Shown: piece after piece, positions 3,568 through 54,198 of the stretch
How positions within the stretch are numbered: the first letter of the stretch is position 1
Layout: every line of letters begins with the position of its first letter
Origin: Candidatus Burarchaeum australiense
Lineage (GTDB): Archaea; Micrarchaeota; Micrarchaeia; Burarchaeales; Burarchaeaceae
DNA: 64,000 nucleotides
Reading direction: 5' to 3'
Assembly (NCBI GenBank): GCA_902386535.1
Contig: CABMJK010000039.1
Location: 678 to 64,677 of the forward strand
The notes under the pieces: generated by a model
Database searches by the model: none
The model's input: the letters and a program-made list of their open reading frames with translations, nothing else
What the model was told of the DNA's origin: nothing
Made by a program: the position numbers and the translations under genes

Positions 3568-4530
3568 TTACACCAACTGCGACAGGCGCATAAGGTCAAG
3601 CTCGCTGCCGAAAAGGCCTGCGAGCTCTCTGCCGAATGCGGCCAGCAATATGAAGTCAAGCGCGGGCAGGAAGACGGTCACGAAGCCCGCAGTTGCCGCC
3701 ATGAGCGCCATGGGCCCTATGCAGGCACCTTCGCCCGTGGCCAGACATTTGGGAGGCAGCGTAAGCGGCGCGTTGACGAGGGGCCCGTAGGCTATGAGCG
3801 CGTTGAGGAAGAGGAGCAGGGGCAGGCCCAGGTAGAGCACCAGGGCAAGGGCCATGAGCGCGCCGCCAAAGCCCCGCATGTAGGGAATGGAGCGGAAGAT
3901 GGCTCCGAGCGGGAAGAGCAGCAGGAGCGCACCGCTTGACGCGTACTGGAGCATGAAAAGCAGGGAGGAAATCGAGAGCATTGCGACCATCAGCGAGTTG
4001 AGTATGAAATAGCCTGCGCCCATTTTGGAGTAATAACCTGTGCCGGGGTCGATGCTCCAGCCTTGCGGGAGTATGAGGCAGATGCTGGTCAGGCACGAGA
4101 ACTTGCTCACCGATGCCTGCACCTCCCAGTGCTGGAGGACCGTTTGCACGGGCAGATAGTAATTGGCATAGGTGAGATGCTGCAAATCCGCGAGGTAGGT
4201 GGTGCTTGCCTGGAAGAAATCTCCGGCACCCGTGAAACCCGGCGGCAGCATGGGCGCAGGGCCCAGCGCAGGATGGAGGTAATAGTAGAAGAACGAGAGG
4301 TCGACGGCGCAGGCAATTCCTATGATGAAGGCAGCTCCGGCGACGAACATGACCGTTGCCGCGGCCTCGTAGATTTCGATTTTGGCCCAGGCCGTGATGG
4401 TGGGGACGCGGAAGAGCTTGCCCAGCATGTAGAGCAGCGAGACCGTGAGTATGGCGAGGAATGCGCTAAGCCCGATTATCGCAGACCAGGTTGCAAGGCC
4501 GGTGAGGCCTATCGTGCACGACGCCATCAT
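3568..4530 (-). CDS. Polytopic membrane protein, paralog P2 (320 aa)
   Basis: The track ORF 3568..5631 is trimmed to ATG-ATG at 4530/4527 (MMASCTIGL...). Its upstream 367 aa are Arg/Pro/His-rich off-frame sequence overlapping P3. Motif A is SLLYMLGKLFRVPTITAWAKIEIYE, motif B GAIFRSIPYMRGFGGALMALALVLYLGLP, tail FGSELDLMRLSQLV. It overlaps the P3 stop by 4 nt (ATGA). Confidence 0.75.
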   Translation of the reverse strand: MMASCTIGLTGLATWSAIIGLSAFLAILTVSLLYMLGKLFRVPTITAWAKIEIYEAAATVMFVAGAAFIIGIACAVDLSFFYYYLHPALGPAPMLPPGFTGAGDFFQASTTYLADLQHLTYANYYLPVQTVLQHWEVQASVSKFSCLTSICLILPQGWSIDPGTGYYSKMGAGYFILNSLMVAMLSISSLLFMLQYASSGALLLLFPLGAIFRSIPYMRGFGGALMALALVLYLGLPLLLFLNALIAYGPLVNAPLTLPPKCLATGEGACIGPMALMAATAGFVTVFLPALDFILLAAFGRELAGLFGSELDLMRLSQLV

Positions 4531-5273
4531 ACCACTCTCGCGAGTTGCGACACCTCTATCTCGCTTCCAAGGAACGAAGCGAACCATCTTATGAACGTGA
4601 GCGTCACCAGCAGGTTCATCACCGGCAGGAGTATGGAAACTATTATCACCCAGTATGCCATGGGCTCGATGAACTGGTGCCGGTTGGTGAGCATATTGCG
4701 GTATGCGACGTCGCCGCTGCACACGCCGTTGAAGGAGGTGGGGGCTGGTGGAATCGAGATGGTGGCATAGGGCGGCAGGACGGGCGGGTTTGGCGGTTTG
4801 AGGGTGGGAACGAAAATCATTTTGGCCACCATGGAGTAGTCTGCCATCACCATCAGGGGATAGACGATGTAGAGCCCTATGGCCACGGCCATCATTGCCC
4901 CGCCCACGGCGCGCGTGAACTTGATGGTCCTCAGCAGCACCCCGACCGGGAAGAGAAGCACGAAAATCTGCTTTGCTGCCTCGAGCAGCAGCCACTGCGC
5001 CTGCATGGCTATCGTGGCCGATGAGAGGGCCGTAAGCGCAACTCCGAGCGTGCCCTGCGTGGCGCCCAGGTATTTGCACGATGCTATGGAAAAGCCAGCC
5101 GTGCTTCCGAGTATCTGGCAGTAGGTGATTGTCGAGCTCACGGCGCCCACGCCAATCGCCGTTTCCTCCATCCTGCCCGTAAACACCGAGAGGTTGTAGG
5201 CAATCTCGTTCGTGTAGGCCTCGGCAAAGTAGAAGGAATCTATCGAGCCCGTGGTCAGCAGGTTGGTGCGCAC
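4527..5273 (-). CDS. Paralog P3, C-terminal part (248 aa from GTG); same frame as 5304..5738, separated only by a TAA
   Basis: Carries motif B (GVLLRTIKFTRAVGGAMMAVAIGLYIVYP) and tail LGSEIEVSQLARVV but lacks the family N-terminal TM and motif A. These are supplied by the upstream 144-aa ORF in the same reading frame. Confidence 0.6.
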   Translation of the reverse strand: MRTNLLTTGSIDSFYFAEAYTNEIAYNLSVFTGRMEETAIGVGAVSSTITYCQILGSTAGFSIASCKYLGATQGTLGVALTALSSATIAMQAQWLLLEAAKQIFVLLFPVGVLLRTIKFTRAVGGAMMAVAIGLYIVYPLMVMADYSMVAKMIFVPTLKPPNPPVLPPYATISIPPAPTSFNGVCSGDVAYRNMLTNRHQFIEPMAYWVIIVSILLPVMNLLVTLTFIRWFASFLGSEIEVSQLARVV

Positions 5274-5303
5274 TGTGGCAAGGTTGGGCAGGGCCGGGTT
5301 GAC

Positions 5304-5738
5304 TTAAGAGACTGCAGGCAGGTCGTCCGGGGCGAACTTGAAGGTCGAGGCCAGGCCTGGCAGCAGGTAGTTGTGGGCAGTCCACAGGAAGGATGCGAGC
5401 AGGAAGACGAAGACGAAGGAGATTATGGCCTGCACGAATTCGTCCCTCAGCATCACCTGCAGGTAGGGCATTTCCATCGAGGTTGCGATGATGTAGAGCA
5501 GGGCCATCACGAAGATCAGGATTAGGACCAGGAGGACCGATATGGCCTCCCAGCTGTTCCAGTCGTCGGGCACGCAGGCGCACTCGTTGCTGGCCGGCTG
5601 CCTCATACCGAACGGGCACGAGCCTATGCAATTGCCCGAAGCGTCTTTCTGGGCGAGGCCGAGGCAGCCGCTGAGAAGCAGGAGCGAGGCTGCCAAAAAT
5701 GCAAGCAAGCCGAATGCCCAGAGTTTTCCGATTTTCAT
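5304..5738 (-). CDS. Paralog P3, N-terminal part (144 aa): lipobox signal peptide, small Cys-rich segment, motif A
   Basis: MKIGKLWAFGLLAFLAASLLLLSGC is a signal peptide with lipobox. VMALLYIIATSMEMPYLQVMLRDEFVQ aligns with motif A of the other paralogs. The ORF ends at TAA 5304-5306, in frame with 4527..5273. Confidence 0.6.
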   Translation of the reverse strand: MKIGKLWAFGLLAFLAASLLLLSGCLGLAQKDASGNCIGSCPFGMRQPASNECACVPDDWNSWEAISVLLVLILIFVMALLYIIATSMEMPYLQVMLRDEFVQAIISFVFVFLLASFLWTAHNYLLPGLASTFKFAPDDLPAVS

Positions 5739-5775: not shown

Positions 5776-7605
5776 TCATATCAGCCTCATCAGTCCCTCA
5801 ATCTCGATGTCCCCGCCCAGAAGGGGCGAGAAGACCTTGATGAACGTTATCGTTATTATGAAGTTGAAGATCGGCAGGATGAGGCCCGCGACTATCAGCT
5901 GGGCCAGCCCAATTACATCTCCCGTCACGACATAGTTGTTGGAGTCCAGGGCCGGCACCGCGCCCGATGTAAGGGAAGTCTGGTCAGTGCACTTTTTCTG
6001 CACTTCCGGGTCCGGGAGAATCGTGAGGCGCGCAGCATCGGCCGCACTGGTAACGAGGTCGCCCGCAGCCGCGTCATAGCCCGCGCACAGCTTGCAGGCC
6101 TCGGCCACGGACGGGTCCTCCCAGCACGCATTCGGAAGGCCGGGCAGCACCTCGTCGAAATAGTTCGGGTAGCTGGGCGGGCTTATGCCGGCTTTCCTGT
6201 AAGTTATGCGGCAGTCGGCGTTGGCGTTCGAGGGGCAGGTCGAGCACTCGGTTTTGTACGGATCCAAAAGCGGGTTCGAAACCACGTAATCGTTGCACGA
6301 GGCTATGAAAAGATTATTGAGTTGGGCATAGTCCCTGGCCTGCGCCCGGTACTTCGCCGAATCGGCGTCCCCTCCGTTTGCTTTCGCGAAAGCATTGCAG
6401 CCCGCGTCCATCGAGCACGGGAACGCGATGTCCAGGAAGGTGGCGGCGCAGCTGCGGTAGCACAAATCATAACTCGGATAGAGGGCCTTGGGAGGCGTGG
6501 TCGCATCCTTGCAATAGCCTTCGCACGCGTCATTGCACGCGGTTTGCGCGAAAGGCGGCGCGGCAGGATTTGGAGCCGTGCACGCTGCGGCGCACTTCTG
6601 GCCCACGCCCACGGGCACCTCGACGTAGAGGTCATTGCGCGGGCAGCAAGTGGCGAGGTCTATCTTGGAATTCGGGTCTATCAGCGGATCGCCATAATCT
6701 TCGCAGTATTGGATGCCGATTCCTGTGGGCTCGTTGTATTTCACGTTCAGTGAGATGGGGAAGGAGTATTGGAAGAGAAGGTAGGTCAGAGGATAGACCG
6801 TGAAGAGGGCGATGGCAATCGCAATCAGGAGCCCGCCCAGCTTGCGCGTGAAGAAGATGGCGCGCAGCACGACTCCGGCTATCAGCAGGAGCGGTATCAG
6901 GCTCGCCTGCAGGTATTGCAGGAAGAGCTGCTGCGCATTCAGCGAGGCGGCCAGCCGCATGGCCTCGTCCGCTATCTGCATGTCCCGGTCGCTGAAGATG
7001 TCCACGCCGGCGGCATAGCGCATCGAGAAGCCGGAGAAGAATGCGGGAAGCAGGTCAACTGCCACGAGGCTGAACTTGCCGGTGGATTTGCCTATCATCT
7101 TGACCGCGTGGATGGTGGAATCGTGCGTGAGCTTCAAGCTGATGTCGCGCAAGTCGGAAAGGTAGGTCTCGGCCATCAGGAATTGCTGCTCGCCGCTCGT
7201 GCAGGGGAGAGTGGGGGCGAGGGGGTTCGAGAGGTTGACCAGCGAGCACGAAAGCTGGCTGAGGGTTGAAAAGAGAAGGATGAGCATGAAGATTATGAGC
7301 ATGGACATGCCGGCCTGGAAGAACTCGGTGACGGCCCAGGCGTGCAGCTCCTTGCTCTGCGAGAACTCGGCCAGCAGGTAGACCAGCGAGATTATGAGTA
7401 TTGTCACGAACACTATGAGCAGCGAAGTGGTGCCCCAGTTATCCTGCAGCCACGAGGTGGTGACCTGGTTTTCGGAAGGCCCTGGCGCGTTGACGGGAAG
7501 GCCCGCGCACCCGGAGAGGGCCAGCACTAGGAAGATGAAGAGGAGCACGAGCGCAGTCGCCGCAAACGATGCACGGGCTCTCGGGGCCCTGTTTTCATTC
7601 TGCAT
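5776..7605 (-). CDS. Paralog P4 (609 aa) with lipobox signal peptide and an about 270-aa Cys-rich ectodomain insertion
   Basis: LVLALSGC is a lipobox. Motif A is SLVYLLAEFSQSKELHAWAVTEFFQ, motif B GVVLRAIFFTRKLGGLLIAIAIALFTVYP, tail LGGDIEIEGLMRLI. About 20 Cys lie between aa 285 and 560 (nt 5926-6753). Confidence 0.8.
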   Translation of the reverse strand: MQNENRAPRARASFAATALVLLFIFLVLALSGCAGLPVNAPGPSENQVTTSWLQDNWGTTSLLIVFVTILIISLVYLLAEFSQSKELHAWAVTEFFQAGMSMLIIFMLILLFSTLSQLSCSLVNLSNPLAPTLPCTSGEQQFLMAETYLSDLRDISLKLTHDSTIHAVKMIGKSTGKFSLVAVDLLPAFFSGFSMRYAAGVDIFSDRDMQIADEAMRLAASLNAQQLFLQYLQASLIPLLLIAGVVLRAIFFTRKLGGLLIAIAIALFTVYPLTYLLFQYSFPISLNVKYNEPTGIGIQYCEDYGDPLIDPNSKIDLATCCPRNDLYVEVPVGVGQKCAAACTAPNPAAPPFAQTACNDACEGYCKDATTPPKALYPSYDLCYRSCAATFLDIAFPCSMDAGCNAFAKANGGDADSAKYRAQARDYAQLNNLFIASCNDYVVSNPLLDPYKTECSTCPSNANADCRITYRKAGISPPSYPNYFDEVLPGLPNACWEDPSVAEACKLCAGYDAAAGDLVTSAADAARLTILPDPEVQKKCTDQTSLTSGAVPALDSNNYVVTGDVIGLAQLIVAGLILPIFNFIITITFIKVFSPLLGGDIEIEGLMRLI

Positions 7606-8598: not shown

Positions 8599-9801
8599 TC
8601 ATATGAGCTTGTAGATCCCGTAGAACTGCGAGTCCCCGCCCAGCTGCTGGGAGAGAGAGCGGGTGGCTGAGAGCGTGATGATGATGCTGAAAACCGCGAG
8701 CGCGGCGGTTATCATGGCGTCGTGCGAAACGGCAGCAAGCGCGCCCTTGTTCGGGTCTGTGCGGTCGACGAGGCCATAGTAAATGTCGTTCACGTTGACG
8801 GCCGCATACTCCTTCAGCGTGGAGGCATACTTTACCAGGAATACGCTGTTTACCTTGCTATAGAGCGAAAGGGCCTTCGGATATTCTTGGAGCATGCAGA
8901 CCCAATAGCCATGCGCGAAGCCGACGCATTTGGGCGTATACCAGATGAACCACCAGGTTATCGAGCCGAGCCATGTGAATTCCTGCACGAACTGGTTGCA
9001 TATCATCGTGTCCTGCAGGTCCGGGGGCTCGTGCGGCAGATTGATTGTTATGTCGCGCATTATGGAGGGCTGGCTGTAAACGCCCGCGGCGAATACGAGG
9101 GTCATGGGATAAACGACGTAGGTGCCTATGGCAATGGCAATGAGGGTCGCGCCGAGCTTCCGCGAGAAGGTGAACGTGCGGAGCACTATGCCGAGAGGCA
9201 GAATCCACCGGAAGGAGTTGTCCCAGAAGAACTGGAGGAGCACGCTCTGGGCAGACTGTATGAAAATTGCGGCAGCCAGCGCGTCGAGGCCGGCGGCAAT
9301 GAGCGAACTCAGGACGTTGAGACCCGCATAGGGCGCGCCCGAGAAGGAGGCGCTGACCAGGAAGAGCGGAATCGCGATGTTGTAATAGAAGCTCGTCATC
9401 TTCGCCACGTAGCGGTCGGCGTCCAGGAGCTTGTTGTAAACCAGCAGCATGTAATCCGCGCTGCCGGCGAGGTAGCATTGGGCGAAATCGTACATGGCGC
9501 TGAAAGTCGGGGTGGGCGCGGGAGTGCACGAGGCTATGGGGGCCGGTGTTCCGCTCACCGTGCCGAATTGCAGATTCAACGGCCCCTGCGCCAGCTGGTT
9601 GACTCCGATGTCGACGAGCCCCATCCCGAGGGCAAGGCCGGCTATCAGAACGGTCGTGACTACGAGCTCGCGGTATTCGACCTTTGACCAGGCCTCGAGC
9701 GCGGGCAGGTGGAAGCCTTTTGAGAGCATGTAGGCCAGGCTAACGATGAGGGCTGAAATGAAGAGCGCGATCGCGGCTATCGGCAGCCAGTCAGAAAACA
9801 T
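8599..9801 (-). CDS. Paralog P6 (400 aa), first gene of the operon
   Basis: Motif A is SLAYMLSKGFHLPALEAWSKVEYRE, motif B GIVLRTFTFSRKLGATLIAIAIGTYVVYP, tail LGGDSQFYGIYKLI. A TATA-like element lies about 30 nt upstream of the ATG. Confidence 0.8.
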   Translation of the reverse strand: MFSDWLPIAAIALFISALIVSLAYMLSKGFHLPALEAWSKVEYRELVVTTVLIAGLALGMGLVDIGVNQLAQGPLNLQFGTVSGTPAPIASCTPAPTPTFSAMYDFAQCYLAGSADYMLLVYNKLLDADRYVAKMTSFYYNIAIPLFLVSASFSGAPYAGLNVLSSLIAAGLDALAAAIFIQSAQSVLLQFFWDNSFRWILPLGIVLRTFTFSRKLGATLIAIAIGTYVVYPMTLVFAAGVYSQPSIMRDITINLPHEPPDLQDTMICNQFVQEFTWLGSITWWFIWYTPKCVGFAHGYWVCMLQEYPKALSLYSKVNSVFLVKYASTLKEYAAVNVNDIYYGLVDRTDPNKGALAAVSHDAMITAALAVFSIIITLSATRSLSQQLGGDSQFYGIYKLI

Positions 9802-11899: not shown

Positions 11900-12021
11900 A
11901 GCCCCAGACGAGAATTGAACTCGCTACCTACTGCTTTCTCGTTTCTTTTCCGCCGGCGCTTTTCTTTGGGAAAGAAAAGGGCCGCTACAAGGCAGTCGCT
12001 CTACCGATGAGCTACTGGGGC
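11900..12021 (-). tRNA. tRNA-Thr (anticodon UGU) with 50-nt intron at canonical 37/38 (intron 11936-11985)
   Basis: Hand-folded: GCCCCAG TA GCTC ATCGGTA GAGC G ACTGC CUUGUA|intron|A GCAGT AGGTA GCGAG TTCAATT CTCGT CTGGGGC T. The acceptor, anticodon and T stems all pair. Confidence 0.85.
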
Positions 12022-17065: not shown

Positions 17066-18163
17066 ATGGCAGAAGAAGACGAGTTTTCATCAGTGCCCAG
17101 CGGGCTTAGGAAAAAGCTGGAGGAGGCAAAGGCCAGGGAAAAAAACCCGCAGCCCGAACTCCCAAAGGCGGCTCCGGCACTCAAGAAGGAGGAAAAACCC
17201 GCGCAGTCGCTTCTTTCGCAGCTCATTCCGCCGGCAGCTAAAAAGGAGGAGAAAGCTGCGCAGCCTGCGCCAGAGGCACCCCGGCTTCCCCAGCCGAAAA
17301 GGGAGGAACAGCGGATTGAAAAAATAGCGCCAGCACCCGCCCGCGCACCAGTTCCCGCTGCGCCGGCGAAACCCATAATCTCGAAGAGCGCGGTGGAGGA
17401 AATTCCGGCCCGCAGGCCCGAAGCGCCTCCGGCAAGAAAACTGGAATCTCCCGCCCAAGCTTCGGCGGCCTCAGCAGCTTCACGGTCAGCAGCGCAACCT
17501 ATCAGGCCCACAATAGCAGTTCAGGCCGAGAAACGCCCCACGGTCGCAAGGATGCAAATCCGGGAACCGGCAAAAACCGAAGAGCATGAGCGCCGCGTGC
17601 CCATCAAGCATCTGACATCCATGTCAACGCCCCAGAGCGAGCAGCAGGTGGCCTATGTCGAGGCCGGGACCAACAAGCTGATCTACGTGGCGCTGATCAT
17701 CGCGGTCATCGCGATTTACTTCGCCTACGCCGCAAACAGCCAGGTCGGGATGATGAAGGAGCAGATACGGGGCGTGGCCGCGAGCCTGAAGGATTTCCGG
17801 GCGCGGGAGGTTTCGCTGAACGTGCCGCTTAACGGCAAGGTCATATTGAACAAGGACCTGCCGCTCTCGAACATATTCCCGCCCAACCTGAGGGCAACCG
17901 GCACGCTGACAATCCCCTTCAAGACGACCATCATTGCCAGGAATCCCTCGAGCGGCACGATTTACGAAATACCGCTGGACCAGAACGTGTCGGTGGACTT
18001 CGTCGCGCCGCTGAACTTCTCGAAGACGGGCGCGGGCCAGTCGCTAAGCATAAACGAGCAGATTCCGGTTACCAACCAAGTGACCCTGAGAATCACGGCC
18101 CGCGACGTGTGGGGCCCGGACCTAGATGCGATAATAAACAGCCTTGAAAGCGCCGGCAACTAA
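17066..18163 (+). CDS. Hypothetical single-pass membrane protein with Lys/Pro/Ala/Glu-rich N-terminal region
   Basis: The N-terminal about 190 aa are low-complexity (KKEEKPAQ / KKEEKAAQ repeats). This is followed by a TM segment (LIYVALIIAVIAIYFAYAA) and an about 150-aa C-terminal domain. Confidence 0.6.
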   Translation: MAEEDEFSSVPSGLRKKLEEAKAREKNPQPELPKAAPALKKEEKPAQSLLSQLIPPAAKKEEKAAQPAPEAPRLPQPKREEQRIEKIAPAPARAPVPAAPAKPIISKSAVEEIPARRPEAPPARKLESPAQASAASAASRSAAQPIRPTIAVQAEKRPTVARMQIREPAKTEEHERRVPIKHLTSMSTPQSEQQVAYVEAGTNKLIYVALIIAVIAIYFAYAANSQVGMMKEQIRGVAASLKDFRAREVSLNVPLNGKVILNKDLPLSNIFPPNLRATGTLTIPFKTTIIARNPSSGTIYEIPLDQNVSVDFVAPLNFSKTGAGQSLSINEQIPVTNQVTLRITARDVWGPDLDAIINSLESAGN

Positions 18164-32362: not shown

Positions 32363-33124
32363 ATGAGAACGAGGGCGCGGACGAACGAGGGCGGATTGAA
32401 GTGCCCCCTGCGGGCGCAGGCAAGCGTCGAGATTATAATCATACTGGCCTCGCTCCTCCTTGTTTTCGGGCTCATACTCAACGCCGCCGGATTGCGGCTT
32501 GGCGACACGCGCACCTTTGCGGACAACGAGATGACGGGCGCGGGAGTAAGCGGCATTGCGGCAGCGGCCGACGAAGTCTATGCCGAAGGCGTTGGCAGCC
32601 AAAGGCTGGTGAAGCTCAGCCTGCCGGCCTCTGTGGTGCAGGGCAGGAGCTTTGTGGACGGCCACCTGCTCGGCGTGCAGCTGCTGAACGCCCGGGGCCC
32701 GACGGACATCAACGCCCGGGCCGGGGCGCCGATGCAGGGCTCGCTGCCCGACACGCCGGGCGATCACCAGGTGCGCGTGAAGGCTGCGCAGGGATTTGTA
32801 ATAATTGGGGAGACCTCACTGTCTATTGAGCCGACGCTGCTCTATGCATATCTAGGGAAGACCGGCGAGTCTGAAGCAAAACTCACGATAATCAACACGG
32901 GTAATGAGCCGCTCACGCTCTCGCTTTCCCTCGACTGGCCAAATCAGGCCGTCAGCGCAGCGCTGGACCAAACCTCGCTTTCGCTGCAGCCTGGCGAGGC
33001 GCGCACGGTCAGCGTGAAGTTTGCGAGCGGTGAGACTGCAGGCACCTATGCAGGCGAGCTCGTGCTTGATGCCAGCAACGGGGAACAGTTCAACGTCGGG
33101 GTGATGGCAGATGTCCTCGCGTAG
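32363..33124 (+). CDS. Class III signal peptide (archaeal type IV pilin-like) protein A (253 aa)
   Basis: MRTRARTNEGGLKCPLRAQ|ASVEIIIILASLLLVFGLIL has the QxSxE motif followed by a hydrophobic helix, as in archaeal class III signal peptides. The C-terminal part looks beta-rich. Confidence 0.7.
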   Translation: MRTRARTNEGGLKCPLRAQASVEIIIILASLLLVFGLILNAAGLRLGDTRTFADNEMTGAGVSGIAAAADEVYAEGVGSQRLVKLSLPASVVQGRSFVDGHLLGVQLLNARGPTDINARAGAPMQGSLPDTPGDHQVRVKAAQGFVIIGETSLSIEPTLLYAYLGKTGESEAKLTIINTGNEPLTLSLSLDWPNQAVSAALDQTSLSLQPGEARTVSVKFASGETAGTYAGELVLDASNGEQFNVGVMADVLA

Positions 33125-33575
33125 GCAAAGGGCGCAGGCAGGAGAAAGCGGAGCGCCGTGCCCCCTGCGGGCGCAGGCGAGCGTCGAGCTGCTCATAATG
33201 TCCTTTTTCGCAGTCGCCATCATACTCGCGCTTTTCTCAGTCTACACCAACATGCTGAACGTGAATTCCGGCGACTCCCAGCTGAGGCATGCGCAGGCAG
33301 TGGCCGGCCGGCTTGCCGGCGCCATGAACGCGGTCGGGCAGGGCATTGACGGGAGCGAGGCACGCGTGAGCCTGGCCGATGCGTCGGGGCTCGAAGTCTC
33401 GTTCCAGGGCAGGAGCGTGCGGGCCGCGTGGAGTAATTACGGAGGTGGCAGGAGCGAGGCCTCTTCGCCCACGTTCACGGACAACGTTGATTTCAGCGTG
33501 GGCCCGGGCGGGGCTGGCGGCAAGAATCTGATTGTGAAAAAAGACGGGGAAAAAATAGTCGTGAGGCAGGCCTGA
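33111..33575 (+). CDS. Class III signal peptide (pilin-like) protein B (154 aa)
   Basis: ...GAPCPLRAQ|ASVELLIMSFFAVAIILALFSVY. The leader motif CPLRAQASVE is identical to protein A. It overlaps gene A by 14 nt. Confidence 0.7.
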   Translation: MSSRRQRAQAGESGAPCPLRAQASVELLIMSFFAVAIILALFSVYTNMLNVNSGDSQLRHAQAVAGRLAGAMNAVGQGIDGSEARVSLADASGLEVSFQGRSVRAAWSNYGGGRSEASSPTFTDNVDFSVGPGGAGGKNLIVKKDGEKIVVRQA

Positions 33576-33576
33576 C

Positions 33577-34158
33577 ATGGAGATGAAAATGAAGAAGATG
33601 GTGGGCGAGGGCGCAAGGAAAGGGCAGGTCATAAGCTATGACCTGATGCTCGCGACTACCGTAGCAGTGGCACTGCTGGGCGTCGTGCTGCTTGCCTCGA
33701 ACACGATTACGGCCGCGAGCGGGGCAGCGTATGACGAGGGCGCGCTGGTGGCGGATGGGGCATTGGCGCAGCTCGTGCTCACGCCGGGCTCGCCCGCTGA
33801 CTGGGCTGCGGGCGCGGCTGCCGGCACTGCTGCAGGCACCGGAGCAGGCGCAGCCTATGAGGCGCATTCGCTCGGCCTTGCAGAGAGACGCGGCGTGCTC
33901 GACAAGGAAAAGGTGGAGGCGTTTGCGGAACTCGATGGGCTGGCCGACGCGGAAGGCGGCCGCGTGTCTTTGCGCGAGAGGCTCGGGCTTTTGCGCGAGG
34001 GCGCCGCATATGATTTCCGGTTCGAGGTGCGCGGGCTTGACGGCTCGGCACTTTATGCCACGGGCCAGGAGCCAACGGGGAACGTGTTCGCGAGCAGGCG
34101 GCTGGTCGAGCTCGACGGCTCGCCTGTGACTGCGGTGATGATGGTTTGGAAGAAATAG
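33577..34158 (+). CDS. Class III signal peptide (pilin-like) protein C (193 aa)
   Basis: ...GARKGQ|VISYDLMLATTVAVALLGVVLLA. It starts 1 nt after the stop of gene B. Confidence 0.65.
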   Translation: MEMKMKKMVGEGARKGQVISYDLMLATTVAVALLGVVLLASNTITAASGAAYDEGALVADGALAQLVLTPGSPADWAAGAAAGTAAGTGAGAAYEAHSLGLAERRGVLDKEKVEAFAELDGLADAEGGRVSLRERLGLLREGAAYDFRFEVRGLDGSALYATGQEPTGNVFASRRLVELDGSPVTAVMMVWKK

Positions 34159-34213
34159 GAAAGAGTGAAGGGCGGGGAATGTGGCGGATGATGGAAATGC
34201 GAGGGATGGAAGA

Positions 34214-34603
34214 ATGCGCGGAATAATATTCACGGTGGACGCGGTCACTGCGGCAGCTTTCCTAGTCGTGCTCCTGTCAACCGCATTCCTGCTGATAAGC
34301 GCGCTGCCGGCCGGGCAGCCTGCCGAAGACCACTTCGCGCACGACGTGCTGGCAGTGTTGGATGGGAAGGCGGGGGCAGGGCTGAATGACGCGCAAGTGA
34401 GGCAGATGTTCCTGCAGGCCAACAAGTGCGGCTCGATTGTTGTAAGGGACGCGGCTGGTTTCGTCGTAGATTCCGCCTACGCGTGCGGCTGCGGCCAGGG
34501 CACCGAAACAGTTGCTTACAGAAGCCTCGTAAAAGTGGGCGCTGGCGGGGCGCTTGAAATCAATTTGGCAAAGGCAAGCGCGTGCCCGAGAACTGGGAGT
34601 TGA
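34214..34603 (+). CDS. Pilin-like protein D (129 aa from ATG 34214)
   Basis: MRG|IIFTVDAVTAAAFLVVLLSTAFLLI is a short basic leader plus hydrophobic helix. The track ORF starts at GTG 34181. Confidence 0.6.
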   Translation: MRGIIFTVDAVTAAAFLVVLLSTAFLLISALPAGQPAEDHFAHDVLAVLDGKAGAGLNDAQVRQMFLQANKCGSIVVRDAAGFVVDSAYACGCGQGTETVAYRSLVKVGAGGALEINLAKASACPRTGS

Positions 34604-34608
34604 AGGCC

Positions 34609-35415
34609 ATGAAAAAAGGTTTTGCATTCACCCTGCTGTTCGTGCTCATAGCCTCGCTGCTGGTCTTCATGGCGGCCGATGCGCTCAAATGGAAGACGGG
34701 CGAGCCGTCCTTCCGCGGGGTTTCGAAAAGCGCAGACATAGCTGATGACGTGGCACAGGACTTTTTCACGCTCATGAATGTTTCGGTTGGCGCCTCGCGC
34801 AATGCTACGCATGCGACGCTTTCGTTCGGCGACTCGCTGCCCTCGCGCCTCGCGGCACCGGAAGATGCCGTCACCAGCTACGTGCAATTCATCGAGGGCG
34901 AATACGCGAATGCAACGAATGCAAATATCAGCGTGCTTGGAACCAGTCCTGCAATCCGATTCTCGGCGCCAGACTTCAGCTATGAATACGGCAGCTGGAG
35001 CAAGGGCAGCGTCTCGCTCGTGGGCGAGGCTGATGCGTATTTCATCACTGCAAGGCTTGACAAGGAGTGCGGCGCGTGCCAGGCCGAAGGGGCGTGGAAC
35101 TGGACTGACGGGGGCACGTTCGTGATGCTCGACATCCAGGACTCGCAGGGCACGGCCGTGGCGCCCGGAGACAAGTCGAGCGGCTACATCAACCCCCAGC
35201 AGTACAACTATTTTGAAGTCATGCTCGCCGACAACTCTTCTTCGTTCCAGCTTTCAGCATTTGGCAACGAACTCGCGATTGCGCCGGCCAACGTGAAGGC
35301 GACCATCAATTCCAAGGTTTCGATCAGGCATGCTGGAGAGATAAGGGCAGCAATGCCGGTCGACCTCATTGTCGATGGAACCGAGTTTAACGGCGTGCCA
35401 TTGCTCGAAAAGTGA
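34609..35415 (+). CDS. Pilin-like protein E (268 aa from ATG 34609)
   Basis: MKKG|FAFTLLFVLIASLLVFMAA followed by a Ser/Asn/Ala-rich globular part. The track ORF starts at 34582, overlapping gene D. Confidence 0.6.
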   Translation: MKKGFAFTLLFVLIASLLVFMAADALKWKTGEPSFRGVSKSADIADDVAQDFFTLMNVSVGASRNATHATLSFGDSLPSRLAAPEDAVTSYVQFIEGEYANATNANISVLGTSPAIRFSAPDFSYEYGSWSKGSVSLVGEADAYFITARLDKECGACQAEGAWNWTDGGTFVMLDIQDSQGTAVAPGDKSSGYINPQQYNYFEVMLADNSSSFQLSAFGNELAIAPANVKATINSKVSIRHAGEIRAAMPVDLIVDGTEFNGVPLLEK

Positions 35416-35480
35416 CGGGCGGGTTTAAATAGTCCTGGCGCGGAAAGCAATGCAGTAAGGCGAGGGTAACGAGGGAAACC

Positions 35481-36929
35481 ATGCCGCAGGCATTTGCGCC
35501 AAGAGGCGAAACAGCAGCCGCTCATCTTGAGCAGGCCAGGGCCATGTACGACCAGTACATTGGAATGAATCCCACTCTTGCGCGCATAGTAGTCGTGGAT
35601 GTTTTCGAGAACGGACAGCTGCAGGACAGGTTCCTGGGCTTCAAGCTCGGCAACCGGATTTACGATTTCAGGACAGACCAGGCAACGGGCCGCGAGCGCG
35701 GCTGGGTGACCGAGGCAGACCTCAATCCGGCCGGCGGCAGGCAGGTTTACGCGTGGTCGTTCGAGAAGGACCGGCGGCTCGAGGGCCTGGGCAGCGAATT
35801 TCTCAACGCAGACCTCAGGCAGATGGGCGGGCAGACGCTGGTGCAATACGCGATTCATGGAAGGCTCGGGCAGGCAGGCTCGACCAACGCCAACCTTGGA
35901 AGCGTGCCGGTCAGGCAGGAAGGGACCGGAACTGCGGCCAGGCACATGCCAACTTCCGGAGCGCCTAGCAGCGACAGGATGTTTACGCGCATGTCAGACC
36001 ACACGCTCGCCATTGGCGAGGCCTCCCACGCAGTCGTGCGGGGCGAACTGAAAATTCCGGAGTCCACGCTGAGGCTCGGCTCCGCGCAAGTGCAGGACGT
36101 GAAGGATTTACAGACCTTGTTGAACTCGTTGGGGATTAGTGACGCGTCCGGCCACAGGCTCGAGGTCACGGGCGTTTTCGACCAGCAGACGAAGGAGGCC
36201 GTGACTGCCTGGCAAAAATACATCAACGACGCATATCACCGGGAAGGCGAGGGAAAACTGCTTTTGGAGGACGGGGTTTTCGGGCAACACACGAGGCATT
36301 TTACCCGCGTGATAATGGGGCTCGATCGGGAGGAGGGCTATGGCTTCGGGGGCGGCCGCACGATCGCTCCGGAACCACGGGACGTGGAAGGCGTTGGGAG
36401 CAGGGGGCCTGGCGAAGTGGAGAAACTCGAAGAGGCGCCGGGGCAGGCCACGGCAGGCGACGAGCAACCTGCGCCTGAAACTTCCGCGCCCGGTGCGTCG
36501 GCACAGCAACCGGAAGAGCCGGTCCAGCAGCAGGCAAGGAAAGTGAGCTGGCCCATCATGGGCGCGGGCGGGCAACTTCCGATAGAACCGATTGAGAAAT
36601 TCAGGAGTGGACAGCTCCTGAGCCTGCCGGCGGTAGAGGGCACGAGCGTGATCGCGCCGGTTGACGGGACTGTGACCGACATTTCAATAGGCATTTTCAG
36701 CGGCTATGTCAGGATTAGAGGCGATGACTGTCGGGAATATTTCATAGGCCATCTGAGCCCGGTGAGCATAAGGACAGTCTCAGTCAACGGGCATGTTACA
36801 GGAGGCCGCACCGTTCTGGGCCAGGTGGGCGGGCCGGACATAGTGCACGGCTATGCGAGAATAGAATTCAAGATTACCAAAAATGGTGCGGCGCTGGATC
36901 CGAGCAGGGTTGTTGGCAGCGAATACTAG
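35481..36929 (+). CDS. Protein with peptidoglycan-binding (PG_binding_1-like) domain and C-terminal LytM/M23-like domain lacking the catalytic His residues
   Basis: VQDVKDLQTLLNSLGISDASGHRLEVTGVFDQQTKEAVTAWQKYIN matches the PG_binding_1 pattern. EGTSVIAPVDGTVTDI...GYVRIRGDD..YFIGHLS...GHVTGGRTVLGQVGG...YARIEFKITKNGAALDP matches the M23 fold pattern, but HxxxD and HLHFE are replaced. No obvious signal peptide. Confidence 0.65.
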   Translation: MPQAFAPRGETAAAHLEQARAMYDQYIGMNPTLARIVVVDVFENGQLQDRFLGFKLGNRIYDFRTDQATGRERGWVTEADLNPAGGRQVYAWSFEKDRRLEGLGSEFLNADLRQMGGQTLVQYAIHGRLGQAGSTNANLGSVPVRQEGTGTAARHMPTSGAPSSDRMFTRMSDHTLAIGEASHAVVRGELKIPESTLRLGSAQVQDVKDLQTLLNSLGISDASGHRLEVTGVFDQQTKEAVTAWQKYINDAYHREGEGKLLLEDGVFGQHTRHFTRVIMGLDREEGYGFGGGRTIAPEPRDVEGVGSRGPGEVEKLEEAPGQATAGDEQPAPETSAPGASAQQPEEPVQQQARKVSWPIMGAGGQLPIEPIEKFRSGQLLSLPAVEGTSVIAPVDGTVTDISIGIFSGYVRIRGDDCREYFIGHLSPVSIRTVSVNGHVTGGRTVLGQVGGPDIVHGYARIEFKITKNGAALDPSRVVGSEY

Positions 36930-43295: not shown

Positions 43296-43570
43296 AGTGC
43301 AATGGGATTGCCGAGTTCGATGCGTCCTTCCCCGTAAGATTATCCGCGCCTAGGCTCCACCCCGTTACCCCAAAGCATGGACGCAAATATTTAGGGTTGC
43401 TCCTTTCGGCCTGGCCCGGTTCACATAAGAGCCCATCTCTGGAGGCAGGGCTTCGACGCTTCGGCACGGGTCCCGCGGCAAAGGGCGAACCTTGCCCGGC
43501 CATTCGGTCCCGCCTAAGAGGATTTGCGGTGCAAGGTACCCCTAGCTCCCCGACCTATCCCACTGCGAAG
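43296..43570 (-). ncRNA. Signal recognition particle RNA (7S/SRP RNA)
   Basis: The minus strand contains GGGCCAGGCCGAAAGGAGCAACC, which resembles the conserved helix-8 motif (GNAR tetraloop plus AGCA). 5' GCAGTGGGAT pairs with 3' ATCCCATTGC. There is a 5' GGGGAGCTAGGGG Alu-like start and a TATA box about 25 nt upstream. The ends are approximate. Confidence 0.7.
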
Positions 43571-44723: not shown

Positions 44724-46694
44724 GTGTTAAAGCACGCAAAGATAACCCCCATAGGGAACCGGTTCTATCCTTGGCCTAACGGAGCGGTTGCCAGACCTCG
44801 CGACCCGGCAGACTTCGCCAACGCCGAGCCGAAGGCGGAAAAAAGGACAGGATGGTCGGAGGAGGCGTTGAAAAAACACGAGGCACGTGTGGCGCACCTA
44901 AGGGCACTGAGTGAAGACTACTGGGGAAAACAGGCGCACATTGAAGGCAGTGAAGAGTTACTCGGTAAGGAGGCGGCGAAAAAAAATCAAGAATTTCTTT
45001 TGGAGAGGTATTACAGGGTATGTTCAAGAAAGAAAAAAGGATGGCTGGAGGAAAAGGAAGACCTGGAGAAGAAGCTGTTGTGGGCATATGATCATTTACT
45101 ACGTGAAATTGCAAACCAAACTCAAGGTTTGCGACTTGAGAAATTCGGCAGCACCCTGGACGCGGACGATTTCTTTGTGTGGGGCCAACTGGGCGTGTTG
45201 AAGGCAATCGAAAAATATGTGCCTGAAAAAAAAGGGTATTTCGAGTTCTACCTGAGGACATGCATACGTAACGCGATTCGGGACGGAATCAAGGATGAGC
45301 AAGGCACCATACACATAGCAGAAGACACCGTAAGCGAACTGGGGCAACTTAAAAAAGCGATAGAAAAACTTACGCAACAGAATGAAGCGCGGGTGGCGCG
45401 CCTCGTAGAAGAAAGGAGCTTGGGTGAAAGACAGTTAAGTGATGCAGAACTGCGTTTAATCAGAAACTGCGGCAAGCCCACGGAAGCCGAACTTGCCGCT
45501 GAGATGGAAGTAACGGTGGAAACTATCAAACGGCTTTTCGAGATAGACCGCTTATTTTTCAATGCTTCCCTGGACGCGCCTGTGAACCGGCAATCGCAAG
45601 GCGAAGACGATGACGCACGGATGCAGTTCTGCGCCGGACCTGGGCTTAAACCGGATGAATACGCGATAATTAGCGCGGTGCTGGAAATCGTCAGGCAAGT
45701 CGTTGAAAAATACGTTTCGGCGAAAGGGGTCAGCGCGCAAACCAGAGAACTGATGCTTGCTAAAATTGACGGTCTTCTCCCGGATTTCATCTCGCTCGAA
45801 GAGGTTGCGGAAACCTTCGGTATGAATCCGAACTATGTGCGAAACACGTTCAGCCAATACCTGGCAGGACCTTTGGGCGATGCGCTGACTGCGCTCGAAA
45901 TCGACGCCGTGCCGATATTTGAAGTCAATCTCGACGTAGTGGAGCGCATGCGCGAAATCGGGAATTGCGCTGGAAAAGAAGCTACGAGTGAGACGCGGAG
46001 GCCGCCGGACTATTGGAAAGACCTGGAAAACAACCTAAACTATCTGCGAGATAATGCCGATGGCGTCTATGCCCCGGACAGCAGCTCAGTGGCTGCAAGG
46101 CCAGTCAAACATTCATTGGACTCGGGGTATTTTCCGGACCACACGTATTCAAGTCTCGCCGCACTTGCAGGGCTTAGATTGAGGACGGAGGAGCCGACGA
46201 TTCATGATGATTTTGACGTGTTTGCGCGGGCGCTCCTGCCACACGTGAAAGACGGAATTATGCCGCCTACGGCCCATTTCAAAGGAAATGGCCTTGAAGA
46301 CCTATACTATAGCATCTTGAACAACTGGGGCGGGAAGGAAGCGGTTATGCGGAAGTTGGCAGAGCGCGGCTTGATCCCCCATGTCGAAGATTGCATTGCG
46401 CATTTGTCGAACAAAGGCCGGCCGAACATGCGCAATGATTTCGGCCTTTTCACCGAGGCGCTGCTGCCGCACATTACGGAAGACGGACGAATCCCCTCGT
46501 ATACGTATTTCAAAAATAACGGAATCGCCACCATTTACAGGTACATTATGGACGTCTGGGGCGGACCTGAAGCAGTCCTGCAAAGAATGAATGGCCTGGG
46601 TATGCTTGGACCGACTAATGGAGAAACCGTGCAGCCGCCGGCCGCAGAGGAGAAGGAGCCGGAATACGCGCTTGTTGGTGCTGGAACCAGATAA
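44724..46694 (+). CDS. Sigma-70 family-like protein (regions 2, 3 and 4 recognisable) with C-terminal tandem repeats resembling homing-endonuclease-associated repeats
   Basis: [46 protein letters not shown] aligns with E. coli RpoD [69 protein letters not shown]...SLDAPV resembles region 3, and [21 protein letters not shown] resembles region 4.2. GC is visibly lower than in flanking genes. The GTG start is uncertain. Confidence 0.7.
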   Translation: [656 protein letters not shown]

Positions 46695-52989: not shown

Positions 52990-54198
52990 ATGCGGCACAT
53001 GACGAATGCAGCTCTTCTGGAAAGGCCGGACAACGCGCGAAGCGTATTCAGCCTCACGGGTTCGGGCGCCCCGCCGCAGTTGGCAGAAGGCCAGATTTGG
53101 ATTCTCCTGCGCATCTACGGCGAGAACGGCATCACCCATCAGTTCGCGATTCAGGACGGCAGCCAGTTTCTTGACATGGACAAGAACCCGCTTTCGCTCG
53201 CGCCAGGCACCTATGCGAAATGCTACAATTGGTCTGACCTCTACTCGGTCGACCAGTCGGTGGACGCCTACAACCCCCGCCTGTCATGGATAGACGACGA
53301 TGCGCCGGGCGCCAAGGTGCGGGCAGACTATGTCACGCTCAAGTGGACAAAGGAACTGCTGCCTGACGACAGGCTGGTGCTTTTCCGCCACTGGGAGAAT
53401 GACAGGATCGTGGATTCGGGAGTTGCAAAACAGCGCGGAAATAAGCTTTACCGGGCGGACGGGACCCAAATCACGGAGGCGGTTTCCACAATCGAGATCG
53501 GAAGCTGGTTCAATCAGAAAATAATGGAAGGCACGCTTGACATCAGGGACTCGAGCCTCAACAATATGGGATGGACCAGGCCCATAATGGACGAACTGTG
53601 GGAAGCGCCCCAGACAACGACAGCGCCTGAAACTCCGCACCAGATGCCGCCCCGGCAAAGGCCCGCGGAAAGCCCCCGTGAGACTTCGCAAGCACCAAGC
53701 ACCGATCAGGGGAGCAGGGGCCGGACCGTGAACATAACATTCTACTACATACCGCATGAGAGCGACAGCAGGTTCGCGAGCGGAGCAGTGGACATACTGG
53801 AAGAAGGAAGGCGCAACGGCGCCTACATGGACAGAAATGGGACTTACTGGCGCTATACGGGACCCGAGCCGCATGATTTCTCGCGCGCCAATGCACCCAT
53901 AACGCAGTGGACCGAGGACCGGCCGCGGGCAAACCACACGCTCGCGGTGCCGCATGAATGGCAGGAAAAATGGATCGTCCTGGTGCGGGACGGGCGGGTG
54001 CTGGCGAGCGGCCATGGCGAGGACAGCGGAGGAGCGTTCACTTCAGGCAGCGGAAAGATAGACGTTTACACTGGCGAAGGGCAGGCAGCCTATGAGGCAG
54101 GCTATGACAAGCATTTCAATACGGGAACCGCAACCGCCTATTTCTTCGACAGCCAAGCAGACATGAACTCATTCATAAGCAGAAAGGGCTGGCAATAA
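52990..54198 (+). CDS. Hypothetical protein with C-terminal 3D-domain-like (MltA/DPBB-type) region
   Basis: TLAVPHEWQEKWIVLVRDGRVLASGHGEDSGGAFTSGSGKIDVYTGEG follows the 3D-domain pattern (tiAvd..., DtGgaI.g..iDvy). The N-terminal 300 aa are unassigned. No signal peptide seen. Confidence 0.5.
   Translation: MRHMTNAALLERPDNARSVFSLTGSGAPPQLAEGQIWILLRIYGENGITHQFAIQDGSQFLDMDKNPLSLAPGTYAKCYNWSDLYSVDQSVDAYNPRLSWIDDDAPGAKVRADYVTLKWTKELLPDDRLVLFRHWENDRIVDSGVAKQRGNKLYRADGTQITEAVSTIEIGSWFNQKIMEGTLDIRDSSLNNMGWTRPIMDELWEAPQTTTAPETPHQMPPRQRPAESPRETSQAPSTDQGSRGRTVNITFYYIPHESDSRFASGAVDILEEGRRNGAYMDRNGTYWRYTGPEPHDFSRANAPITQWTEDRPRANHTLAVPHEWQEKWIVLVRDGRVLASGHGEDSGGAFTSGSGKIDVYTGEGQAAYEAGYDKHFNTGTATAYFFDSQADMNSFISRKGWQ

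Follow-up and report, generated by a model that had tools for sequence, protein, structure and literature searches.

Bacterial degenerate LytM factors such as EnvC, NlpD, DipM and SpoIIQ retain the scaffold of the M23/LytM fold but have lost its zinc ligands, and LytM domains with such losses (EnvC, NlpD, DipM) are inactive. Pseudoenzymes of this type have so far been studied as regulators of bacterial cell division. Here we analysed a 64,000-nucleotide stretch of contig CABMJK010000039.1 (the window) from Candidatus Burarchaeum australiense, a small symbiotic archaeon of the Micrarchaeia (DPANN), in which the open reading frame (ORF) at 35481-36929 encodes a predicted member of the same group. 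The protein resembles the bacterial factors in its M23/LytM fold, its lost zinc ligands and its retained scaffold, and EnvC is its best structural match. Unlike them, it belongs to an archaeon without murein, has neither a signal peptide nor a lipoprotein signal, has no amidase partner (e.g. AmiA/B/C) in the window and retains one catalytic His. The accessory parts also differ, since a PG_binding_1 module and a novel N-terminal domain stand where EnvC has a coiled coil and NlpD and DipM have LysM. The genome, LFW-281_7, a metagenome-assembled one (MAG) of 76 contigs, was obtained from groundwater of an Australian legacy waste site, the Little Forest Legacy Site (PMC8561730).

Murein-targeting proteins are already known in archaea as a class. 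Archaeal proteins with Peptidase_M23 and PG_binding_1 can kill bacteria, and Woldo of Halogranum salarium, which carries an M23 domain followed by two PG_binding_1 domains, an intact active site and a twin-arginine translocation signal, is bactericidal (PMC12352652). The Burarchaeum protein has the same two domain types, and domain shuffling probably shaped both proteins; it differs in the reversed domain order, the dead site, the additional N-terminal domain and the lack of a signal peptide. It combines a wall-binding with a catalytic-type domain, as the modular hydrolases of that study do, but four of its five catalytic residues are substituted. In the same survey of 2025, 32% of the archaeal modular hydrolases had a recognised signal peptide and 68% had none, and the searched part of its supplementary tables holds no Burarchaeum entry (PMC12352652). 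In DPANN, murein-lytic domains and sigma-70 genes have been reported, and the murein-lytic transglycosylases of Woese- and Pacearchaeota were interpreted as serving attachment to or attack on bacteria (PMC8204110). Those proteins are very large, predicted to be extracellular and contain an SLT domain, whereas the protein described here is small, leaderless, M23-derived and predicted to be inactive; the likeness lies in murein-targeting domains in DPANN. The paper that described the genome mentions an M23B peptidase in a lineage neighbouring Ca. Burarchaeum australiense (PMC8561730). A literature search for a degenerate LytM domain in archaea gave a bacterial paper and no published archaeal description. 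New here are an archaeal LytM domain in the dead state, the novel N-terminal domain with its extremely narrow family, the swapping of modules at one locus, and the tie by position between archaeal pilus genes and a PG-binding subfamily. For most groundwater DPANN archaea neither host nor lifestyle is known, and murein-targeting genes are a rare genomic clue that the partners of some are bacteria and not other archaea.

The C-terminal domain was assigned to the M23/LytM fold in a preliminary description made from the sequence alone. Pfam by itself does not bear this out, because residues 382-474 score 26.0 bits on PF01551 (Peptidase_M23; E 1.1e-5), just under the cutoff of 28.7 bits. The M23 homology is nevertheless secure. 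On PF01551 the C-terminal domains of its nearest relatives, P0005 and P0017, reach 49 and 70 bits, and a profile of the target domain and its relatives matches solved M23 structures in the PDB with E 3e-29, including lysostaphin, LytM, ShyA and zoocin A together with the inactive EnvC, DipM and SpoIIQ. In the AlphaFold model, which has three folded modules with disordered linkers between them, residues 377-479 (predicted local distance difference test, pLDDT, ~90) have the LytM domain of EnvC (4bh5_A) as their best fold match in a Foldseek search of the PDB (E 9.6e-6, TM score 0.68 relative to the target chain). All 23 Foldseek matches at E <= 1e-3 are M23/LytM structures except the choline-binding 5gt1, which the M23 profile also matches.

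The catalytic positions were inspected in an alignment of the target with its active relatives P0005 and P0017 and eight other M23 domains. The HxxxD motif, which provides two zinc ligands, corresponds to G377 and S381, and this segment carries a deletion compared with P0005 and P0017. The HxH motif, with one catalytic His and the third zinc ligand, is replaced by R460-I-E462 ('ARIEF'), although both His positions are H-x-H in all 10 other aligned domains. The central catalytic His, invariant across the alignment, is kept as H424 ('IGHL'). Thus all three zinc ligands and one of the two catalytic His are substituted, and four of the five catalytic residues are changed, as the preliminary description had proposed for the metal ligands. 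Among 29 strongly conserved columns, a small base for such a test, the target keeps 18 of 24 non-catalytic positions against 1 of 5 catalytic positions (Fisher p = 0.036), and the loop directly before HxH accounts for three of the six scaffold positions that are lost. The scaffold is much better preserved than the catalytic residues, a contrast that uniform or neutral decay would not give. The losses are concentrated at the active site with the scaffold otherwise preserved, which is the pattern of known degenerate LytM pseudoenzymes. The protein is M23-derived with its canonical zinc site gone, descends from or is sister to proteins with intact sites, and would be catalytically dead.

The central module is a PG_binding_1 domain (PF01471), which Pfam places at residues 205-246 with 33.6 bits against a cutoff of 23 (E 4.6e-8), and this part of the preliminary description was upheld. 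The match spans positions 3-39 of the 57 in the profile, and relatives reach 92 bits. The module is predicted to form a helical bundle, with helices at 204-216, 235-255 and 269-278 (pLDDT ~90); over the module pLDDT is mostly 87-96 and dips to ~61 at residues 251-260. Foldseek matches it to the PG-binding parts of SleC (9h68, probability 0.99) and of 1lbu (probability 0.96), although E in the search with the whole chain is as high as 0.09-0.19. Both recognisable domains are of murein-associated types, as stated earlier, and the window of the archaeal host has no murein genes in view.

The N-terminal domain, ~120 residues long, defines a very small family. HMMER, run exhaustively over 1.84 billion representative proteins, gave 36 matches at E <= 1e-3, most of them to the PG-binding or the M23 module alone, and the N-terminal domain was common to just four other clusters at 50% identity: P0002/P0037, P0003/P0038, P0005 and P0017. 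P0005 consists of this domain, PG_binding_1 and an intact M23 domain, and P0017 of this domain and an intact M23 domain; both keep HxxxD, the middle His and HxH. P0002/P0037 and P0003/P0038 combine it with two PG-binding repeats and a different C-terminal module, unrelated to M23. P0037, from the MAG of Ca. Burarchaeum sp. E19, is the sole organism-named member, and the rest are from metagenome contigs. A scan of the GTDB species representatives for the domain led to one other genome. In MAFFT alignments it is 24-39% identical between the target and its relatives; in a comparison of the single modules P0037 is the nearest (37%). With P0005, P0017 and P0037 the target shares this domain, the PG-binding module where they carry one, the 'AR.VSWP' entry motif, the '...DP..V.G..Y' C-terminus and the absence of a leader. 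Its PG-binding module is nearest to that of P0004 (47% identical), a protein without the N-terminal domain, and its M23 domain is 33-42% identical, about equally, to family members and to phage-like M23 domains. The affinities of its modules are mosaic.

An AlphaFold model of the N-terminal domain gives pLDDT 75 and a predicted TM score (pTM) of 0.72, and within the full model its pLDDT is 70-84. It has no Pfam match, and Foldseek found no convincing structural counterpart in the PDB or BFVD (best E 0.1-0.17, probability <=0.33). Profile scans did not find it in IMG/VR viral contigs or in the JGI metagenome contigs scanned; a second metagenome scan seeded with P0005 and P0017 found P0005 again and nothing else, and a word-indexed whole-protein search returned the target itself and no other match. 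The family is tiny, leaderless and lineage-restricted, known to date from Burarchaeum-type archaea and unassigned metagenome contigs, and this novel domain defines it. The ORF at 52990, which might have shared the N-terminal beta-hairpin domain, was rejected as a relative (hhalign probability 1.6%; one single pair at BLASTP E 0.05).

P0005 and P0037 are encoded at one and the same locus in their contigs, after a minus-strand tRNA gene and before the gene for triosephosphate isomerase (TIM), and the P0038 gene likewise follows a tRNA gene. Since P0005 carries M23 and P0037 carries the other module at this shared site, catalytic modules have been swapped at one conserved locus. The window copy sits at a different locus, after pilin-like ORFs, and the window contains neither a second family member nor TIM. 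The module that replaces M23 in P0037 and P0038 (~180 residues; L001:254-1513 and L004:977-2062) matches neither Pfam nor PDB sequences; putatively a Cys/His peptidase, it may be a wall-hydrolase domain not described before. The tRNAs beside the family members in L001 and L004 look interrupted. Upstream of P0038, the ORF at L004:2-565 is rich in Gly, Glu and Pro, and its C-terminal end, a hydrophobic helix with a basic tail (…AFLLLFFLFALRRRKNEED), looks like a sorting or anchor signal.

Our data tentatively favour, as possible and somewhat short of probable, a murein binder or adaptor that does not cut, or a partner of a hydrolase, acting in contacts with bacteria. The PG-binding bundle and the vacant groove of the LytM domain would recognise murein without cutting it, and the protein would be a binder or adaptor without enzymatic activity, or else would assist or regulate a hydrolase that is still active, in the manner of EnvC, NlpD and DipM. 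The setting would be the contact of the archaeon with bacterial cells, which the protein would have to reach by a non-classical route; for targeting, docking or non-classical export its N-terminal domain is the foremost candidate. Because the closest relatives keep intact M23 sites beside the same PG-binding module, a role that involves bacteria is the reading with the fewest assumptions, and to this extent the earlier proposal that the organism attaches to or feeds on bacteria is supported. If the dead copy is functional, it offers a concrete handle on archaeal recognition of bacterial walls. If it is merely decaying, it would be a small footnote to the published work on archaeal peptidoglycan hydrolases.

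Several observations weigh against this reading. The target has no signal peptide, lipobox, transmembrane segment or class III (prepilin) signal, the first of which was correctly noted as missing before; its maximum 19-residue Kyte-Doolittle mean is 1.18, whereas the five upstream ORFs reach 2.4-2.8. The frame has no room for a leader further upstream, because it is listed from the earliest start codon that follows a stop, and by sequence inspection none of the family members has a signal peptide. Action outside the cell therefore needs a non-classical export route. No partner hydrolase or amidase was seen in the window, murein binding by the protein would follow from its domain family, and the counts behind the Fisher test are few. 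The degenerate form is a singleton; since no database orthologue exceeds 50% identity, selection for the dead state cannot be demonstrated.

The position of the gene raised the further idea that the protein is delivered or displayed by a neighbouring filament. The gene begins 65 bp after the last of five upstream ORFs with class-III-like N-termini (e.g. 'LRAQASVE' and 'KGQVIS'), in which a charged start is followed by a hydrophobic helix, and with QxSxE-like motifs. The Pfam evidence that these are pilins is weak (Class_IIIsignal E 0.1, DUF7287 E 0.18), and of the placement directly after a pilin operon the adjacency held better than the pilin assignment. The sequence TTTAWATA occurs 10 times in the window (9832, 17031, 23276, 23330, 32334, 35424, 43589, 48710, 60059 and 62594) against 0.59 expected from shuffles, and the sites checked against ORF starts are intergenic and lie just upstream of genes (17031 for the gene at 17066, 43589 for FtsZ and 9832 for the gene at 8599-9801). 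This set appears to be a usable map of archaeal TATA-like promoter boxes in the host genome, whereas scanning for promoters and terminators of bacterial type was uninformative in this archaeal DNA. Because the target has its own TATA-like box and a GAGGG motif, an independent transcript is likely, which speaks against a tie to the pilus. So does the context of the relatives, since the three family members with visible context follow a tRNA, both of those with a downstream flank precede TIM and none is beside pilins. A tblastn search of the window's pilin-like ORFs, NYN and TatD against L001 found no shared synteny. With its own promoter-like box, no class III signal and relatives beside tRNA and TIM genes, delivery or display by the adjacent filament is not established.

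A positional link to pili was found elsewhere. The two best matches to the PG-binding module, P0004 and P0008, are PG-binding-only proteins made of stand-alone repeats without a signal peptide, and their genes lie 51-53 bp upstream of an archaeal type-IV-pilus secretion ATPase (L005:5628-7504, L006, L007, L008 and L009; L012:3-3797). The nearest solved relatives of this T2SSE ATPase are GspE of Archaeoglobus (2oap, E 1e-84) and FlaI, and in L012, the sole locus reaching that far, a T2SSF/UpsF-like platform gene follows it. The ATPases of the P0004 and P0008 loci are 92% identical and the PG-binding proteins beside them ~30%, which suggests that the P0004-type gene is fast-evolving. The two loci are orthologous and count as one additional lineage, not two, which reduces the weight of this link. 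The co-occurrence with pilin genes expected in relatives was thus not seen for the family members, although the PG-binding relatives abut pilus assembly genes. A tie of the target to a type-IV filament is suggestive from gene position. It is very doubtful that the N-terminal domain couples a leaderless, module-swapping, murein-targeting family to archaeal type-IV filament machinery. If it did, a DPANN archaeon would have gained pilus-associated attachment to or attack on bacterial walls, the dead-LytM copy beside pilin genes would be a non-cutting adhesin or adaptor, and the host or prey of Burarchaeales would be bacterial rather than archaeal. The recurrence of a PG-binding module next to archaeal pilus-assembly genes is a lead in any case. 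In L012 a further PG-binding-like ORF lies upstream. A weaker PG-binding relative, P0040, lies in a bacterial-looking mobile region and was uninformative on pili.

Other readings account for part of these data. The gene may be a decaying relic, an inactivated copy of an active family hydrolase that has no function and is nearing loss from a reduced DPANN genome. The loss of four of the five active-site residues, the two long disordered insertions that relatives lack, the absence of a conserved orthologue and a codon adaptation index (CAI) of 0.59, slightly under the 0.64-0.76 of housekeeping genes, agree with this. The frame of 482 codons is intact, however, and is preceded by a promoter-like box and a Shine-Dalgarno-like motif; all three domains are confidently folded in the model, the scaffold is kept far better than the catalytic residues, and small DPANN genomes tend to purge dead genes. 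We consider a relic unlikely, while taking it seriously. An intracellular role apart from murein, with the PG_binding_1 bundle and the LytM scaffold as protein-protein modules in the assembly or regulation of type-IV filaments, would explain why the whole family and the PG-binding-only relatives have no export signal, and it agrees with the pilus ATPase and platform genes directly downstream of the nearest PG-binding modules and with the pilin-like ORFs before the target. SpoIIQ-like degenerate LytM domains, which are among the PDB matches, are pure protein-protein modules. But P0005 and P0017 have complete M23 motifs, which would serve no purpose unless these proteins cleaved a peptide or murein substrate; elsewhere the family members lie away from pilus genes, and the target has its own promoter-like box. 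Such a role is distinctly unlikely.

The absence of a signal peptide is also typical of endolysins, and a remnant of a leaderless endolysin or virion-associated lysin, from a bacteriophage or an integrated element, would share with the target the modular combination of PG-binding and M23 domains. PHROG endolysin families match the PG-binding part, at the domain level only, and the relatives adjoin tRNA genes, where mobile elements commonly integrate. P0019, the nearest M23 protein outside the family, is encoded in a phage-like block (L010:1-12835) with a 2017-residue ORF, a LysM protein and an SU10-type major capsid gene, and the second-best fold match to the target is a cyanophage pre-ejectosome protein; both hint that the M23 module is related to virion-associated lysins. 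The gene itself has no viral context. Its neighbours in the window, like those of the relatives in L001 and L002, are housekeeping genes, with no integrase, capsid or terminase, its composition is native, the N-terminal domain was found neither in IMG/VR contigs nor among BFVD structures, and the active site is dead, unlike that of phage lysins. A viral or mobile origin of this kind is very unlikely. That the protein is still an enzyme, with an alternative metal site (e.g. H424, H456, E462, D453) or as a metal-independent peptidase, is highly improbable: one catalytic His is retained, a Glu stands where the last zinc ligand would be and another His, H456, precedes R460 by four residues, but none of the three canonical ligands is left, part of the HxxxD segment is deleted and known LytM domains with such losses (EnvC, NlpD, DipM) are inactive. 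Both recognisable domains are typical of bacteria, which could point to a bacterial gene on a chimeric contig produced in assembly or binning. This is hardly credible, and contamination was rejected, because archaeal genes lie on both sides, composition is uniform over the 64 kb, a TATA-like box of archaeal type stands before the gene, and the relatives are in archaeal contexts (the Burarchaeum MAG and contigs with a similar tRNA/TIM neighbourhood).

The features of the locus are listed below. GC content in the window is uniform at 0.54-0.62, and the ORF at 35481-36929, which is uninterrupted in the program-made ORF list, has a native-like composition (GC 0.61; GC at third codon positions, GC3, 0.71) near the values of the adjacent ORFs. 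The gene had been regarded as horizontally acquired; its native composition and the tiny Burarchaeum-linked family with its novel N-terminal domain do not fit a simple recent import from bacteria. Its close downstream neighbours are aIF5A, S24e and S27ae, and the window also encodes FtsZ, FEN1, an archaeal-type S-adenosylmethionine synthetase, HMG-CoA reductase, FtsY, an archaeal signal recognition particle RNA (43300-43565) and an intron-containing tRNA. The deposited Ca. Burarchaeum australiense version (P0001) is the identical protein annotated from M22, with 461 residues. The start at 35481 is preferable to M22, because residues 9-21 align with conserved residues of the relatives and contribute to a predicted helix; with 21 residues fewer, the public entry is probably too short at the N-terminus (window 35481-35543).

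Features of the degenerate LytM gene and its upstream region, in window coordinates
Feature	Position	Strand	Remarks
Five consecutive small pilin-like ORFs	32363..35415	+	class-III-like N-termini; Pfam weak (context only)
TATA-like box TTTAAATA	35424..35431	+	~50 nt 5' of the start codon, inside the 65-bp gap
GAGGG, Shine-Dalgarno-like	35471..35475	+	6 nt before the ATG at 35481; read from the sequence, putative role
Coding sequence	35481..36929	+	482 aa; no signal peptide or transmembrane segment
N-terminal domain, residues 9-126	35505..35858	+	helix, then beta-sheet; family-defining
Disordered linker 1, residues 127-189	35859..36047	+	pLDDT 30-47; gap in relatives (insertion)
PG_binding_1-type helical module, residues 190-284	36048..36332	+	Pfam match 205-246 = nt 36093-36218
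Disordered Pro/Glu/Ala-rich linker 2, residues 285-376	36333..36608	+	pLDDT 35-41 mostly, to ~55 at the ends
Degenerate M23/LytM domain, residues 377-479	36609..36917	+	active-site equivalents G377, S381, H424 (kept), R460, E462

The first of the pilin-like ORFs (32363-33124, + strand) has a C-terminal Ig-like region with sub-threshold matches of the Cep192/ASH/HYDIN type (~24.7 against 27 bits), which would be unusual for an archaeal pilin-like protein. The LytM gene had been counted as the third bacterial-flavoured gene in the window, together with a sigma-70-like gene and a gene for a 3D-domain protein, and of these two calls the former holds and the latter is weak. The ORF at 52990-54198 (+ strand, 402 residues) has no signal peptide, and its sole Pfam match to 3D is sub-threshold (E 0.047, 14.3 against 23.8 bits). 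The ORF at 44724-46694 (+ strand, 656 residues) scores 30.6 bits on Sigma70_r2 against a cutoff of 24, with Sigma70_r3 sub-threshold, and its composition is atypical (GC 0.52; GC3 0.57, compared with ~0.8 in housekeeping genes). Two long ORFs on the minus strand, at 3568-5631 and 5776-7605 (687 and 609 residues), match no Pfam family at E <= 1e-3. At 11900-12021, also on the minus strand, Rfam finds a 122-nt tRNA that ARAGORN missed, and its length fits an intron-containing archaeal tRNA.

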